UHGV virus genome: UHGV-1373625
Strand: one strand, 5' to 3'
Length of the DNA stretch: 64,000 nucleotides
From: a virus
Shown here: positions 6,776 to 12,579 of the stretch, piece after piece
Layout: every line of letters begins with the position of its first letter
Position numbering within the stretch: position 1 is the stretch's first letter
Notes under the pieces: generated by a model
Seen by the model: only the letters and a program-made list of their open reading frames with translations
Database searches by the model: none
What the model was told of the DNA's origin: nothing
Program-made: the position numbers and the translations under genes

Positions 6776-7825
6776 ATGTCTATTCTCAAGTCCAAGGTTT
6801 CCGTTATCCGTTTTATCACCGAAGTTGAAGATAATCTTGAAACTATCATCAATGGGCTTAACGCCGCACGTTTTCAGGAAAAGTGGGAAGCGGGAATGGA
6901 TTCCATGCAAGGCTTCTGCCCCCTTAATGACCGTTGGGGCTCCTCTGATTTCCACGAAGGTAACATCAAGGCGAATGGGTTTATTGCATTCTTTTTCCGT
7001 ACTGACACTAAGCGGGTAGATCCCAATCTTCTCAAGCGTGAAATTTCTGACCGGATTGAGCGTTTCTCCGAAACTTATGGAAAGAAACCCAATCGTGAAG
7101 AACGTAAGGACATTCAGGTCATTGTGAAGAACAAACTGCTCAATGAAGAAAAAGCCAAGCCCTCTTTCTATCCGGTCATGTTTAATCCCGAAACAGGGGA
7201 AGGGTATCTTTTCGCTACTTCCAATAGTGTCTTTGAGAAGTTCCGGGCGTCGTTCAAGTTGGTCGCCGGGATTCCAAATGTTAAGAATCTCGAAGAAATT
7301 GTGGAATCTCGAAACCTTGATTTCACAGTCGATAGCCAGACGTTCCTGACGTGGTTCTGGTGGCGCATGGAGAATGATCCCACCAAACCTGTCACCACCG
7401 AGAATACTTCCTACGAATGCTCCATGAGCGGCACTGTAACGGTAAGTTCGGCGGAAACCGGGGAGAAGGTCACGGAGAAGTCGGACCAGCTTCACGAGGC
7501 TCGTATGGCCCTTCTGCGTGGTCTTCGTGCGGAAAAGGCAGCGGTTACTTGCTGCGCTGGCTCCGGCATCAATATTGAGTTTACTTTGAATAATGAAAGC
7601 CTCAATATTTCCGGGCTCCCCATTCCTAAGTCCGAGGAAAAGCCGAGCGACGTGTTTGAAGAATTTGAACATGCGAAGATTCATATTGATGAAGCTTTTG
7701 CTCTTATTGATTCTTTGATGGAGGAATATATTGAGCTTAATGCGGTAGGCGACCCGCTGCCTCCTACTCCGCTTATTCATTGGGGTCGTGGGGATTTTTG
7801 TTCCGGAAGCATTGAAATTCTGTAA
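6776..7825 (+). CDS. RdgC-like recombination-associated protein (putative)
   Basis: 349 aa. The layout resembles E. coli RdgC from memory: an N-terminal v.RF motif, F.P...GW, and a K/E-rich helix followed by LLP-AF-like LFATSNSVFEKF. An AAGGAGAG RBS precedes the start. The antisense ORF 6758-7846 is judged spurious. Confidence 0.35.
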   Translation: MSILKSKVSVIRFITEVEDNLETIINGLNAARFQEKWEAGMDSMQGFCPLNDRWGSSDFHEGNIKANGFIAFFFRTDTKRVDPNLLKREISDRIERFSETYGKKPNREERKDIQVIVKNKLLNEEKAKPSFYPVMFNPETGEGYLFATSNSVFEKFRASFKLVAGIPNVKNLEEIVESRNLDFTVDSQTFLTWFWWRMENDPTKPVTTENTSYECSMSGTVTVSSAETGEKVTEKSDQLHEARMALLRGLRAEKAAVTCCAGSGINIEFTLNNESLNISGLPIPKSEEKPSDVFEEFEHAKIHIDEAFALIDSLMEEYIELNAVGDPLPPTPLIHWGRGDFCSGSIEIL

Positions 7826-7827
7826 GC

Positions 7828-8031
7828 ATGGAGGATATAATGGCAAAAGGAACTTTCAGGGTAGTAGAAAAAATTTGTCCTTTCTTGAATGCGCCTTGTA
7901 AAGAAAAGAGGTGTATGATGTGGGATGAAAAATATTTAGTCTGCCAATTGGCTTATCCAGCGAAACGTAGGGTGAAAGGCGAAAGTATACAGCCGCTTTA
8001 TCTAAATCACATAAACATGGAAACGAAATAA
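7828..8031 (+). CDS. hypothetical Cys-containing small protein
   Basis: 67 aa, containing CPF..APC...C...C. Confidence 0.3.
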   Translation: MEDIMAKGTFRVVEKICPFLNAPCKEKRCMMWDEKYLVCQLAYPAKRRVKGESIQPLYLNHINMETK

Positions 8032-8041
8032 ATAAAAAAAA

Positions 8042-8078
8042 GATACCAGCGTTTGTTAAAAATTCTGGTATCTTTTTT
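8042..8078 (+). terminator. rho-independent terminator
   Basis: GATACCAG...CTGGTATC forms the stem, followed by TTTTTT. Confidence 0.6.
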
Positions 8079-8090
8079 AATAAAGGAGGC

Positions 8091-9452
8091 ATGATGAAAT
8101 CCGTAATTGACTTTGAAACAAGATCCCCTGTAGATATTAAAACTTGCGGAGCTTACGCATATGCTGCGCACCCTGATACTGAGGTGATGATGCTTGCCGT
8201 CCGTATATGTGGACAGGAGGCTCGCGTATGGGTAGCTCCGGCATATAGGCATTTTCTTGATACTGAATTGAGTGACGATGAATTGCAGGATATTATTAAT
8301 AATTGTGAAGAGATTGCAGCACATAACGCCCCTTTCGAAAGAGCCATTTGGAAATTCAAGATGGAGCCTCTCTGGTTTAAGCCATTGCCATTAGAGAAAA
8401 TTCGATGCACGATGTCTCAGGCCCTTATGTGCAACCTCCCCCGTAAACTGGAACAAGCGGTAAAGGTTTGGCGAAAAGACGCCCCTCAGAAGGATAATGA
8501 AGGGCATAAGCTGATGATGAAAATGTCAAAGCCTAGGAAGTTCCGTAAAGCCGAGCTTTCCGCGTTTCCTGATCCCGAAAAGGCTAAGGCTACTCAAGAA
8601 TACGTCTATGCTGTACTTTCAAAAGGTGGCATTCCTACCATTAAAAACTACCATCAATATATTGTCTATCCTTGCGACGAGCCAATGTTTAAACGATATG
8701 TTGAATATTGTCGACAGGACGTGGTTGCGGAAGAAGTTCTTTTTACGGAGCTTCCTCCTATCCCTGAGCGGGAGCTTAAAGTGTGGCGGCTTGACCAGAC
8801 AATCAATGACCGTGGAGTAGGAATTGACAGGTTTCATGCGGTCAAAATTATGGATATGGTTAATAAAGTAGAAGATATTTTGACGGAGGAAGCTTCTGAG
8901 ATTACGTATGGGGCGGTATCGACTATGAAGTCTTCTAAGGCTATTATTGAATGGCTACAATCTCGTGGGGTTGATACTGATTCGGCAAGCAAGCAAGCTA
9001 TCTCCGACCTTCTTGAACGGACTGATCTCCCCTCTGATGTTCGTAGATTCCTTGAGATTCGCCAGACTATTGCCATGTCTTCTACGGCAAAATATCAGAC
9101 CATGCTCTGTACTTCATGCTATGATGGCAGGGCGCATGGAACGATGATTTATCATGGCGCTTCAACTGGAAGGTTTTGTCTTTCGGAAGGGTCTATGGTC
9201 AAAGTTTGTGATGATGCAGGTTGTGTTTATGAAAAGCCTATCGAAAATGTTGACAGATCAGAAAAAGTATGGGATGGTTCGGATTGGGTCTATCACGATG
9301 GTGTAGTTTTTTCAGGAGATAAACCCGTTATTGAATGGGATGGGATTGTTGCTACAGAAGAACATAAAGTTTTTATTTCAGATACAGAAAAAATGTCTCT
9401 TTTAGAAGCCAAGGAAAGAGAACTTAAACTCTGGCAAGGAGAGAAACCCTAA
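8091..9452 (+). CDS. DNA polymerase I (family A), N-terminal fragment: 3'-5' exo domain plus start of the pol domain, ending in an intein N-part
   Basis: IDFETRS is the Exo I motif. The extein ends ...GASTGRF at 9176. CLSEGSMVKV... begins intein block A, and DGIVATEEHKVF is block B. The stop is at 9450-9452. Confidence 0.75.
   Translation: MMKSVIDFETRSPVDIKTCGAYAYAAHPDTEVMMLAVRICGQEARVWVAPAYRHFLDTELSDDELQDIINNCEEIAAHNAPFERAIWKFKMEPLWFKPLPLEKIRCTMSQALMCNLPRKLEQAVKVWRKDAPQKDNEGHKLMMKMSKPRKFRKAELSAFPDPEKAKATQEYVYAVLSKGGIPTIKNYHQYIVYPCDEPMFKRYVEYCRQDVVAEEVLFTELPPIPERELKVWRLDQTINDRGVGIDRFHAVKIMDMVNKVEDILTEEASEITYGAVSTMKSSKAIIEWLQSRGVDTDSASKQAISDLLERTDLPSDVRRFLEIRQTIAMSSTAKYQTMLCTSCYDGRAHGTMIYHGASTGRFCLSEGSMVKVCDDAGCVYEKPIENVDRSEKVWDGSDWVYHDGVVFSGDKPVIEWDGIVATEEHKVFISDTEKMSLLEAKERELKLWQGEKP
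9177..9449 (+). mobile_element. intein N-terminal part (IntN, 91 aa) of an apparently split intein in PolA
   Basis: The Cys1 block A is CLSEGSMVKVCDD. The TxxH block B is VATEEHKVF. The part ends at the ORF stop. Confidence 0.6.
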
Positions 9453-9523
9453 TGCGTACTTATGACATACTTAATGCTGGCCCTAAAAATAGATTTATGG
9501 CGAATGGTAAAATCGTAAGTAAT
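9452..9523 (+). mobile_element. intein C-terminal part (IntC, 24 aa) opening the PolA C-fragment
   Basis: MRTYDILNAGPKNRFMANGKIVSN followed by S resembles the DnaE IntC ...VYDIGVERDHNFALKNGFIASN followed by C. It has its own AAGGAGAG RBS at 9435-9442. Confidence 0.55.
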
Positions 9524-11368
9524 TCAGGTGCTCTTATTCAACCGCAAAATTTGACTAGACCTTCAACAAATAATATGAATATCCCCGAAGGTTCCAAGCC
9601 TTTGGATAATTATGATATCAGTGAAATGGATATCGAACTTGCAGCTAGCGGGAATTTAGATCTTATCCAGCAGTATTGGAAAGACCCTAAAGTCCTTGCC
9701 TCCGATTGCCTTCGCGCAATGATTCACGCTAGAAAAGGATACGATTTTATCTGTGCCGACTATAGTGGGATTGAAGCCCGAGCATTGGCATGTCTCGCTG
9801 GCGAAGAGTATGTTCTTCAAGGTTTTAGGGACGGCCTTGACCCATATAAAGTTGCAGCTACGACTATCTATGGGGTGAAATATGAAGATGTGGATAAGAA
9901 GCAGCGTCAAGTAGGTAAGACGGCTACGTTGGCTTGCTTCTCTGCGGATACAATGGTTTATACGAGCTATGGAATAAAAAAAATCGTCGACATAACTAAA
10001 GATGATTATGTATGGGATGGAGAAAACTGGTGTTTGACAGATGGAGCATATTGCCAAGGTATTAAAGAAATCGTTAATTTTTTGGGAGTAGAATCTACAC
10101 CTGATCAAAAATGGTTGATGGATGAAAATATTTGGATAGACTCCGATGCAGCTATTGAATTGTGTAAATGGCTAGGAGATGGGAAAGTTTATTCTAGCGA
10201 GCAATATCAAATATTCTCTAGTTGGGTTAGTTATCAAATCTCAAAAGTTCAAGATAAAATTATTTATAGTTTGAAGAAATACCCAGTAAAAGTAACTATA
10301 GCTGAAATGGGAATTGAAGTAATTCTTTCCGATTTTGACGAAGATGACTTTAATGTATCCTTTGTTGATTCTAAAAGTAGAAAAGGTGTTTATGTATACT
10401 TGGGTGAAAGCTTAAGGAACACGAGTCTTGAAGATAAAGTTAAATATGTATGCTCCATTATCGTCTTTTTAGCTACGATTTTTTCTAAGTATTCAACAGC
10501 TCAAAATTATCTGAATATTAAAGTGAGTGAAGCCGTTATTAAGGACTATAATAAAATAAATATGGCGATTTTAAAGTTTATCAAAAAAGATGATAGCGAT
10601 GAAATTATTCTTACTGGGAGCATTTTATCTAATAGAGATGGTTATACTAAAATAGAAAAAGTTTATGATCTTTTGAATTGTGGAGATAAAAGCAGGTTTA
10701 TGATACATACATCCTGCGGTCCACGCATTGTGCATAACTGTGGATATGGAGGTGGTTATGGCGCGTTCCTTCGCTTTGGGGCTGATAGAATGGGCATTGA
10801 TGAAGAGGAAGGAAAGAAGATTATTGCTGCATGGAGAGACGGGCACCCAATGACGGTTAAGCTTTGGCACAAACTCGTTGAAGCTGCTGTCATGGCTATG
10901 ACGAATAAGGGCGGAATTTATTCTTATCGTGGAGTATCATTCCAATACTATAAGAGATTCCTCCTTATGAAGCTCCCTAGTGGCAGGTTCCTCTTCTACT
11001 TCGAGCCTAAACTTGAAGACGTGGAGATGGCATGGTCTACGCCAGAAAAGCCAGCGTTCAAGAAGCTTGTTACGGCGATGACCTTGACGCCAGAAAAACA
11101 ATTTGTGAGAAGGCCGCTTAACCATCTCATACTTTCAGAAAATGTTACACAAGCTTTCTGTAGAGATCTGATGGTGAATGCGATGTTCAATCTCGAAGAA
11201 GCCAATTATCCGGTAGTGTTTCATGTTCATGATGAAATCATTGCGGAAGTTCCTAAAGGGTTTGGGTCTGTCGAGGAATTTGAAAATATCATGTGCAAGC
11301 TTCCTCAATGGGCAGAAGGTCTGCCAGTAAAGGCCGAAGGATGGAGGGGAGAATTTTATAGGAAATAA
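9452..11368 (+). CDS. DNA polymerase I (family A), C-terminal fragment: IntC, pol domain, and a second embedded intein
   Basis: Motif A is DFICADYSGIEARALA. Motif B, KQRQVGKTATLA...GYGGGYGAF, is interrupted by an intein. Motif C is VFHVHDEIIAEV. Confidence 0.75.
   Translation: MRTYDILNAGPKNRFMANGKIVSNSGALIQPQNLTRPSTNNMNIPEGSKPLDNYDISEMDIELAASGNLDLIQQYWKDPKVLASDCLRAMIHARKGYDFICADYSGIEARALACLAGEEYVLQGFRDGLDPYKVAATTIYGVKYEDVDKKQRQVGKTATLACFSADTMVYTSYGIKKIVDITKDDYVWDGENWCLTDGAYCQGIKEIVNFLGVESTPDQKWLMDENIWIDSDAAIELCKWLGDGKVYSSEQYQIFSSWVSYQISKVQDKIIYSLKKYPVKVTIAEMGIEVILSDFDEDDFNVSFVDSKSRKGVYVYLGESLRNTSLEDKVKYVCSIIVFLATIFSKYSTAQNYLNIKVSEAVIKDYNKINMAILKFIKKDDSDEIILTGSILSNRDGYTKIEKVYDLLNCGDKSRFMIHTSCGPRIVHNCGYGGGYGAFLRFGADRMGIDEEEGKKIIAAWRDGHPMTVKLWHKLVEAAVMAMTNKGGIYSYRGVSFQYYKRFLLMKLPSGRFLFYFEPKLEDVEMAWSTPEKPAFKKLVTAMTLTPEKQFVRRPLNHLILSENVTQAFCRDLMVNAMFNLEEANYPVVFHVHDEIIAEVPKGFGSVEEFENIMCKLPQWAEGLPVKAEGWRGEFYRK
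9935..10738 (+). mobile_element. contiguous intein (268 aa) inserted in PolA motif B, with a central putative endonuclease or linker domain
   Basis: It starts CFSADTMVYT (block A) and ends ...RIVHN followed by C. The flanking extein LA + CGYGGGYGAF restores motif B. A degenerate LGDG motif lies in the middle. Confidence 0.6.
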
Positions 11369-11457: not shown

Positions 11458-12579
11458 ATGTTTGAAGTAAAAGGATCAGTAAGTACAGCTAAGGTTTTCA
11501 CAGATTATGTGGAGCCGACCGCGTTATCTCAGATTATTGAATTATGTAATCAGGAGTTCACCGAAGGAAGTAAAATCCGTATTATGCCTGATGTACATGC
11601 TGGTGCTGGATGCGTTATTGGAACGACGATGACCATTGAAAATAAGAAAATCGTTCCTAATCTTGTCGGTGTTGATATCGGTTGTGGGCTACTGTCCTGT
11701 GAATTTACTTTGGGGGATAAGCTCAACAATAGCTTTTTTGAAGAAGTTGATCGAATTATTCGAAAGTATATTCCCGCAGGATTTAATATTCGTAACGACA
11801 AGCATGAATTGGTTAGCGCCATCAATTTGAATACGCTTGCATGTTGTAATGAAGTTAATATCGCTCGTGCGGAGCACAGTATTGGGACTTTGGGGGGAGG
11901 GAATCATTTTATTGAAATAGGGGAATCCGATAATTTCGATGGTACTTTTTCTTATTTCCTTACCGTACATTCTGGTTCTAGAAATATTGGAAAAGAAGTA
12001 GCTACTTATTATCAAAATGTCGCTATTAAGGAATGTCCGGGCACCCCCAAACATCTAGCGTATCTTTCAGGGGAGATGTTCGATGAATATATGTATGATA
12101 TGGAAATCATGAAATATTATGCCTCTTTGAATCGTGAGGCGATCATTAACGATATCACGCTACACATTGGGATTAAGAAAGACGATGTCTATGAAACCGT
12201 TCATAACTATATAGAACGTATTGACAATGATGTGTTCATGCTGCGCAAGGGAGCCGTTTCCGCTAAAAAAGAACAGGCTCTTATGATCCCTTTGAATATG
12301 AGAGACGGTATTATTTTTGGTTTTGGTAAAGGACTTGAAGACTGGAACTATTCCGCACCTCATGGAGCTGGACGTAGACTAAGCAGAGGTGAAGCCAAGC
12401 GCAGCCTTGATATGAATGATTTTAAAAATGAAATGGAAGGTATTTATTCTTCTTGCGTAAATATTTCTACTCTTGATGAAAGTCCTATGGCATACAAGGA
12501 TGGCTCAGAGATTCGTAATAATCTTCAATCGGTGGAAACCTTGTTTACTATTAAGCCAGTATATAACTTTAAAGCATAA
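11458..12579 (+). CDS. rtcB: RtcB-family RNA ligase
   Basis: Motifs MPDVHAGAG, GGGNHFIE, HSGSRNIG and APHGAGRR are present. This is a short, 373-aa RtcB form. Confidence 0.8.
   Translation: MFEVKGSVSTAKVFTDYVEPTALSQIIELCNQEFTEGSKIRIMPDVHAGAGCVIGTTMTIENKKIVPNLVGVDIGCGLLSCEFTLGDKLNNSFFEEVDRIIRKYIPAGFNIRNDKHELVSAINLNTLACCNEVNIARAEHSIGTLGGGNHFIEIGESDNFDGTFSYFLTVHSGSRNIGKEVATYYQNVAIKECPGTPKHLAYLSGEMFDEYMYDMEIMKYYASLNREAIINDITLHIGIKKDDVYETVHNYIERIDNDVFMLRKGAVSAKKEQALMIPLNMRDGIIFGFGKGLEDWNYSAPHGAGRRLSRGEAKRSLDMNDFKNEMEGIYSSCVNISTLDESPMAYKDGSEIRNNLQSVETLFTIKPVYNFKA

Follow-up and report, generated by a model that had tools for sequence, protein, structure and literature searches.

A phage family-A DNA polymerase encoded as two overlapping genes that carry the halves of a small candidate split intein

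Introduction

How can a virus make one DNA polymerase from two genes, each of which codes for a part of the enzyme and a part of an apparent intein? This question is raised by positions 8,091 to 11,368 of the virus genome UHGV-1373625, within the stretch of 64,000 nucleotides (nt) analysed here (hereafter, the window), where two open reading frames (ORFs) together code for a family-A DNA polymerase. An initial annotation, made from the letters alone, had proposed a naturally trans-splicing split intein at the junction and, as the alternative, a contiguous mini-intein broken by a frameshift or a sequencing error. The division of the polymerase gene into two overlapping genes is genuine, and the ends of these carry intein halves of 91 and 24 residues; the two products are probably joined by protein trans-splicing of this split intein. 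The split-intein proposal is supported by alleles in which the insertion site is empty, by the conservation of the split in diverged loci, and by the invariance of the catalytic residues.

Architecture of the locus

The features of the two-ORF polymerase are all present at the coordinates that the initial annotation had given (Table 1). As it had described, ORF1 carries intein blocks A and B and stops after 91 intein residues, forming the N-terminal intein fragment (IntN), while ORF2 has a ribosome-binding site of its own and opens with a C-terminal intein fragment (IntC) of 24 residues, followed by Ser and by the extein that resumes as GALIQPQNL. IntN reads CLSEGSMVKVCDD...DGIVATEEHKVF...LKLWQGEKP, and its first residue is C363 (tgt, 9177-9179). 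Two details are amended: ORF2 does not start one nucleotide after ORF1 but overlaps it by one base, the ATG sharing the last A of the TAA, and, next to the split intein, the description had missed a second, contiguous intein in ORF2. The polymerase identity of the N-extein is indicated by the match of its residues 5-362 to the PHROG family phrog_17 'DNA polymerase' (E 1.5e-34), by tblastn matches to phage DNA polymerase I genes, and by its collinearity with residues 1-362 of intein-free polymerases of 708-709 amino acids (aa; L005, L008).

Table 1. Coordinates of the features of the two-gene polymerase locus in the window
Feature	Position	Strand	Remarks
ORF1	8091..9452	+	453 aa, TAA stop at 9450-9452
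N-extein, 3'-5' exonuclease domain and N-terminal part of the family-A DNA polymerase	8091..9176	+	ORF1 residues 1-362, end ...HGASTGRF
IntN	9177..9449	+	91 residues; C1 LSEGSMV = block A; ATEEH = block B TxxH; helix SLLEAKERE, LKLWQG, tail EKP
Shine-Dalgarno-like AAGGAGAG for ORF2	9436..9443	+	lies in the 3'-terminal codons of IntN, 8 nt ahead of the ATG
TAA stop of ORF1, TAATG overlap with the ORF2 ATG	9450..9452	+	identical in L001-L004 and L010
ORF2	9452..11368	+	638 aa
IntC MRTYDILNAGPKNRFMANGKIVSN	9452..9523	+	24 residues; block F YDI.., block G ..IVSN
+1 Ser (tca), predicted transesterification nucleophile	9524..9526	+	Ser at +1 in all intein-bearing loci
C-extein, first part, SGALIQPQNL... 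through motif A to ...QVGKTATLA	9524..9934	+	Pfam DNA_pol_A, E 4.2e-16; collinear with L005
Second, contiguous intein, then +1 Cys	9935..10738	+	268 residues, in motif B, ORF2 residues 162-429
C-extein, second part, CGYGGGYGAF..., motif B/C to stop	10739..11368	+	PHROG phrog_10285 and phrog_17 'DNA polymerase', E 8e-56 and 2e-54

Empty alleles and the insertion site

A scan of IMG/VR with ORF1 yielded ten loci from one metagenome. The intein-free L005, L006, and L008 are single uninterrupted polymerases of 708-709 aa that read GASTGRF-AGALIQPQNL at the site of the split intein, where the DNA runs ...ACTGGAAGGTTT/GCAGGTGCT... (here and below, a slash marks an insertion point or splice junction), and KTATLA-CGYGGGYG at the site of the second intein. 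Because these alleles are uninterrupted, both inserts of the window are precise, in-frame additions to a conserved polymerase, and because close relatives read through both sites, chance is not an issue. Specifically, the 91 + 24 residues lie between F362 and S, within a conserved host motif. At the empty site, the residue that would become +1 is Ala (gca) in L005, L006, L008, and L009 and Ser in L007, whereas every insert-carrying allele has Ser, a distribution that would be expected if this Ser is the nucleophile needed for splicing.

This phage population is polymorphic at three intein sites, namely site a (GRF/S), site b (motif B), and site c (SENV/...TQAF), and the combinations found are none, a, a+b, b, and b+c. 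L007 (5001-8249) carries a 374-residue intein at site b only, and L009 (5001-8903) combines a 268-residue intein at site b with one of about 317 residues at the third site (HLILSENV/...IVHNC/TQAFCRDL). Across the window and L001-L009, synonymous differences cluster in the roughly 20 nt directly upstream of the site of the split intein (9155-9176, the GASTGRF codons), in intein-bearing and empty alleles alike, and the flanks are nearly identical; the cluster could reflect variation of an endonuclease target site or co-conversion tracts.

A family of split inteins

The split intein belongs to a widespread family. A phmmer search with IntN against 1.84 billion representatives gave 1361 matches, many of them at the C-terminus of proteins of 400-480 aa. 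Dozens of ORF1-like proteins of 408-476 aa, with 33-53% identity to ORF1, end in the same, better-conserved IntN, whose consensus is CLAEG..VLVK..G...EKPIE.V...D.VWDG..WV.HEGVVFSGDK.VIE.DGV.AT.EH.VY.S..ES..L.EAK..GL.LW.G, followed by 1-21 variable residues. The DNA of the relatives was taken from IMG/VR and GTDB genomes and both halves were located, resulting in 41 distinct loci (32 split, 2 contiguous, and 7 cut off by contig ends). IntC measures 24 residues in 25 of the 32 split loci and 25-27 in the remainder, with one of 36, and it always starts at a homologous position, (M/V/L)(R/K)TYDI.NAGP.NRFMANG.IVSN/S, with ATG, GTG, or TTG as the start codon; a purine-rich, Shine-Dalgarno-like stretch precedes this start in most, not all, loci. 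One member (L020) has halves of 88 + 24 residues. Querying for homologues with residues 1-161 of ORF2 gave 5 proteins only and contributed little more than four further IntC-initiated fragments. The bacterial hosts among metagenome-assembled genomes (MAGs) are mostly Bacillota (Ruminococcus, Oscillospiraceae, Lawsonibacter, Clostridia), to which Alicyclobacillus sendaiensis is added. Against 50,697 phage records, megablast of the region gave no match and tblastn with IntN gave only distant contiguous inteins that cover its first 67-72 residues; hence, no cultured phage in this collection carries the split intein.

Contiguous relatives exist as well, in which a linker of 13-30 residues joins the two parts (L026, P0087, P0121, P0122, P0138, P0172, P0243). 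Other contiguous inteins of the same clade (P0127, P0137, P0153, P0155, P0162, P0183, and others) have inserts of 150-400 residues at the place that an endonuclease domain would occupy; these are rich in R, G, A, S, and P, look unstructured, and recall inteins with an endonuclease in the other frame or strand (bioRxiv 10.1101/2025.01.02.630785).

The family is poorly visible in annotation, as public records name its genes 'DNA polymerase' or 'hypothetical protein'. In the Alicyclobacillus sendaiensis locus L011 (GCA_030555535.1, 6099-7169), the NCBI protein WP_304458984.1 has 308 aa against 356 aa for a call that starts at IntC, so that its start presumably lies downstream of IntC, and the IntN-bearing gene is annotated as 'hypothetical protein'.

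Residues, fold, and charge of the split intein

The family alignment has invariant residues at the positions that class 1 splicing would employ: Cys1, Thr60 and His63 (block B), Asp96 (block F), Ser114-Asn115, and Ser+1. In IntN, C1 and A-T-E-E-H are fully or nearly invariant, with a single exception at position 1 (see below), and in IntC so are T94-Y-D-I, N99-A-G-P, N-R-F, and V-S-N, followed by S+1; the penultimate residue is Ser, not His, as in DnaE inteins. The split site lies after block B, at the usual position of endonuclease insertion. The net charge is -10 for IntN and +3 for IntC (-5 to -12 and +2 to +3 across the family), compared with -11 and +3 in the Npu DnaE intein.

An hhalign comparison of the family profile with the Npu DnaE intein, whose sequence agrees with the matches in the Protein Data Bank (PDB), gives a probability of 91.9%, and a profile search of PDB sequences ranks Npu DnaE inteins first, weakly (E 0.38-0.65). 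Both alignments leave a gap of 9-14 residues in the family where Npu has ...DNLPN/MIKIATRKYLGKQN; the short IntC is thus explained by the lack of the first strand of the Npu IntC. An AlphaFold model built on a 45-row alignment of recorded proteins reaches a predicted local distance difference test score (pLDDT) of 92 and a predicted template modelling score (pTM) of 0.67, compared with a pLDDT of 40 for the single sequence, and it supports a HINT fold for the N-lobe.

Splicing model and its alternatives

These features suggest the following sequence of events. The TAATG overlap and the internal Shine-Dalgarno element would couple the translation of the two genes, with ORF2 reinitiated behind its own element. 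ORF1 would yield the exonuclease and the N-terminal polymerase part fused to the acidic IntN, and ORF2 the basic IntC fused to the remaining polymerase; electrostatic attraction would bring the two fragments together, and they would fold as a minimal, 115-residue HINT domain. Cys1 would then undergo an N-S acyl shift to a thioester, aided by the Thr-x-x-His of block B, Ser+1 would attack the thioester in a class 1 trans-splicing reaction, and the cyclisation of the terminal Asn would release the intein and ligate the polymerase. The predicted product has the junction ...HGASTGRF-SGALIQPQNLTR (...TGRF-SGALIQPQNL...), which would restore the conserved motif TGR(L/F)SS...QN. The second intein, in motif B, would also have to splice in cis.

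Several points weigh against this model. The proposed trans-splicing is deduced from the sequence and from the established chemistry of class 1 inteins. The profile search that the initial annotation had suggested returned no curated intein family of Pfam or NCBIfam at E <= 1-10 for the split parts of ORF1 and ORF2 or for the fused intein; these curated profiles are without coverage of this intein clade. There is no beta-strand before block F, unlike in the Npu DnaE IntC, which bears on whether so reduced a domain would splice efficiently; in the AlphaFold2 model, no strands are assigned in region 81-104, and only about 86 residues superpose on known inteins (Foldseek TM-score 0.40). The ORF1-like protein P0101 has Gly in place of Cys at intein position 1 (...RTQRW-GLAEGT...), where its close relative P0112 has Cys, and it may represent an inactivated intein or a sequencing error. 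Moreover, maturation of the whole polymerase would depend on a second intein that is itself atypical, with Gln for the His of block B.

The alternative that survives best, although improbable, is that the intein halves merely hold the polymerase fragments together, giving a two-subunit enzyme in which no peptide bond is formed. Phage enzymes fractured by homing endonuclease genes are described as functional without inteins, such as the Aeh1 NrdA as summarised in PMC2677866 (see also PMC3045599), splicing is only deduced here, and the docking of the 24-residue IntC in the predicted structure is uncertain. However, residues that serve only the chemistry (Cys1, Thr and His of block B, the terminal Asn, and Ser+1) are invariant across about 20 diverged split members, Ala is tolerated at +1 in intein-free alleles while every intein-bearing allele has Ser, and the conserved TGR(F/L)-S motif would remain disrupted by 115 extra residues. 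Trans-splicing is therefore preferred to a non-covalent complex.

A contiguous mini-intein recently broken by a frameshift, or by a sequencing or assembly error, is very unlikely; in the case of a mutation, the polymerase would be a pseudogene. The insert of the split intein has a length of 347 nt (3n+2), which is not divisible by 3, and ahead of its ATG the ORF2 frame stays open over 15 codons, from 9407 only, so a single indel could fuse the frames, and contiguous relatives do exist (L026, P0087, P0121, P0122), yet the 13-30 residue linker that they share is absent in the window. The TAATG junction is common to L001-L004 and L010 despite 49-81 differences to the window over 1.5 kb, and 9404-9465 is invariant in the compared alleles. 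Many independent JGI, ENA, and Logan assemblies contain ORF1 and ORF2 proteins identical to those of the window, and the NCBI entry DAY49014.1 ('MAG TPA: DNA polymerase I [Caudoviricetes sp.]') is an ORF1-like protein of the same 90% cluster. As the junction and the exact proteins recur in independent assemblies, the artefact raised by the initial annotation is excluded. An inactivating mutation of recent date does not fit either, since both frames are under purifying selection: substitutions in IntN are mostly synonymous in the ORF1 frame (23 synonymous and 9 non-synonymous in L004, 12 and 2 in L002) and those in IntC are all synonymous in the ORF2 frame (4 and 0 in L002). Furthermore, ORF2 has its own Shine-Dalgarno element, and about 30 diverged loci keep the split with the same IntC start, the halves lying 700-1000 nt apart in most of these.

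Least likely of all is a programmed -1 ribosomal frameshift near the stop that would produce a contiguous precursor for cis-splicing: the frames do overlap, with that of ORF2 shifted by -1 against ORF1, but no slippery heptamer X XXY YYZ was found by eye in the ORF1 frame of 9407-9452, a +1 shift meets a stop within a few codons, and in most members the halves are 700-1000 nt apart with an intervening gene, so this is not the mechanism of the family.

Link to a GIY-YIG homing endonuclease

The gene layout of most relatives is that of known 'fractured genes'. A gap of 700-1000 nt separates the halves in 22 of the 32 split loci. In a sister phage (L122) whose ORF1 is 98% identical, a gene for a 282-aa GIY-YIG protein (PF01541) lies between IntN and IntC. 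The stop codon of this gene and the IntC start overlap in TAATG, the pentanucleotide at which IntN also meets IntC in the window; the window is about 827 nt shorter here, and the last 12 codons of IntN differ. In the Alicyclobacillus prophage L011, the intervening ORF has a GIY-...-YIG motif and matches PHROG homing-endonuclease families, including 'homing endonuclease with GIY-YIG motif', and the downstream gene begins MRTYDIINAGPKNRFMANGRIVSN/SGRIIQPQNLP. In other members (L027, P0130, P0144, P0156, P0170, P0180), IntN is fused in frame to a GIY-YIG endonuclease, with the N-extein, IntN, and about 290 endonuclease residues in one ORF and IntC on a separate ORF that it initiates with 24 residues.

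In the window, the gap between the halves is -1 nt, leaving no room for a free-standing endonuclease gene, and the locus is the state of the 'fractured gene' arrangement without an endonuclease gene. As for the direction of change, the arrangement of the window appears to be derived by loss. The GIY-YIG gene of the relatives presumably drives homing into intein-free polymerase alleles; without it, the split intein no longer homes by itself, and since the polymerase is presumably essential, only a precise deletion could remove the intein. Side by side in one phage population (one metagenome and an ENA assembly), a presumably essential replication gene is found with an empty site, with the split intein plus a GIY-YIG gene, and with the split intein alone, which makes the 'fractured gene' model of the origin of split inteins directly testable.

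Comparison with known inteins

In the 'fractured genes' described by Dassa et al. (2009, PMC2677866), split inteins (gp41-1, NrdJ-1, IMPDH-1, and others) are accompanied by a free-standing homing endonuclease gene between the halves, and the hosts are the gp41 helicase, IMPDH, DnaE, NrdA, NrdJ, ligase, and terminase, with no family-A polymerase. The present family shares with them a host split at a conserved motif, IntN at the end of the first gene and IntC at the start of the second, a GIY-YIG ORF between the halves in most relatives and in the sister phage, a phage or metagenomic source, Ser+1, and halves of opposite charge. It differs in its family-A polymerase host and, in the window, in the lack of an endonuclease gene and in the one-base gene overlap. 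In size, gp41-1 has an IntC of 37 residues in an intein of 125, compared with 24 and 115 in the window.

The cyanobacterial DnaE split inteins (Npu, Ssp; PDB 4kl5, 2keq, 4lx3) interrupt the Pol III alpha subunit at another insertion site, have Cys at +1 instead of Ser, and have halves that lie far apart in the genome instead of overlapping. The Npu IntC has 36 residues with the strand IKIATRKYL, for which the family of the window has no counterpart, and the sequence similarity is weak. Phage family-A polymerases can also carry contiguous inteins, for example in APSE-1 P45, Streptococcus Javan phages, and Gardnerella phage vB_Gva_AB1. Over the first 67-72 residues, these belong to the same clade, with 39-47% identity; unlike the split intein of the window, they occupy a single reading frame and have an internal domain behind block B. 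In contrast to the atypically split inteins of the AceL-TerL, VidaL, and PolB16 type, with a very short IntN and a long IntC, the window has an IntN of 91 and an IntC of 24 residues. A C-fragment within reach of peptide synthesis is also a property of the short-IntC split intein NpuDnaE C15 (Aranko et al. 2009, PMC2664965), although its split site was engineered, while the IntC of the window is natural and conserved.

Neither a split intein in a family-A polymerase nor the motif strings of the family came up in a literature search; the literature covered was incomplete and a prior description is possible. A Mic1 cyanophage paper was considered as a precedent and set aside, as it covers terminase inteins and an intron of polymerase gamma. 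Split inteins and fractured genes are thus a known kind, and, as far as can be told, the novelty lies in the host protein, in the reduced C-lobe, and in a gene pair that overlaps and has no endonuclease gene. More tentatively, with a chance somewhat below even, the family could represent the smallest natural splicing domain (112-116 residues) and the shortest natural C-fragment (24) at the canonical split, working without the strand before block F that all characterised split inteins have; if so, the HINT fold would be reducible further than thought.

Few naturally split inteins are known, and every newly described one has been turned into a tool of protein engineering (DnaE, gp41-1, NrdJ-1, AceL-TerL, VidaL). 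A natural and conserved IntC of 24 residues in an intein of 115 (10 fewer than gp41-1), with Ser+1, is of interest to protein engineers, the more so as the field explicitly wants shorter C-fragments accessible to peptide synthesis (PMC2664965); provided that its splicing with Ser+1 is efficient, the intein would be a ready tool for semisynthetic C-terminal protein labelling.

The second intein and neighbouring genes

The second intein of ORF2 is contiguous and reads KTATLA/CFSADTMV...RIVHN/CGYGGGYG. It is absent from L003 and L004, as from the intein-free L005, L006, and L008. Its ends are related to the split intein and to the mini-inteins that occupy the same site in P0121 and P0122, and it matches the NCBIfam model intein_Nterm weakly (E 0.084), while its central portion of about 150 residues matches no Pfam family. 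In block B (STPDQ), Gln takes the place of the expected His, and the substitutions relative to L001 and L002 (about 7 synonymous and 5-6 non-synonymous) indicate a weaker constraint.

Downstream of the polymerase, the intein-free L008 has an ORF of 246 aa with an HNH-like C-terminus (...NVRLVTRKENINNR...) at 7206-7946, between the polymerase and an RtcB-like gene. The latter (7993-9217) is read in L008 as two overlapping ORFs, whereas one RtcB-like ORF that differs in its middle section is present in the window (11458-12579) and likewise in L005.

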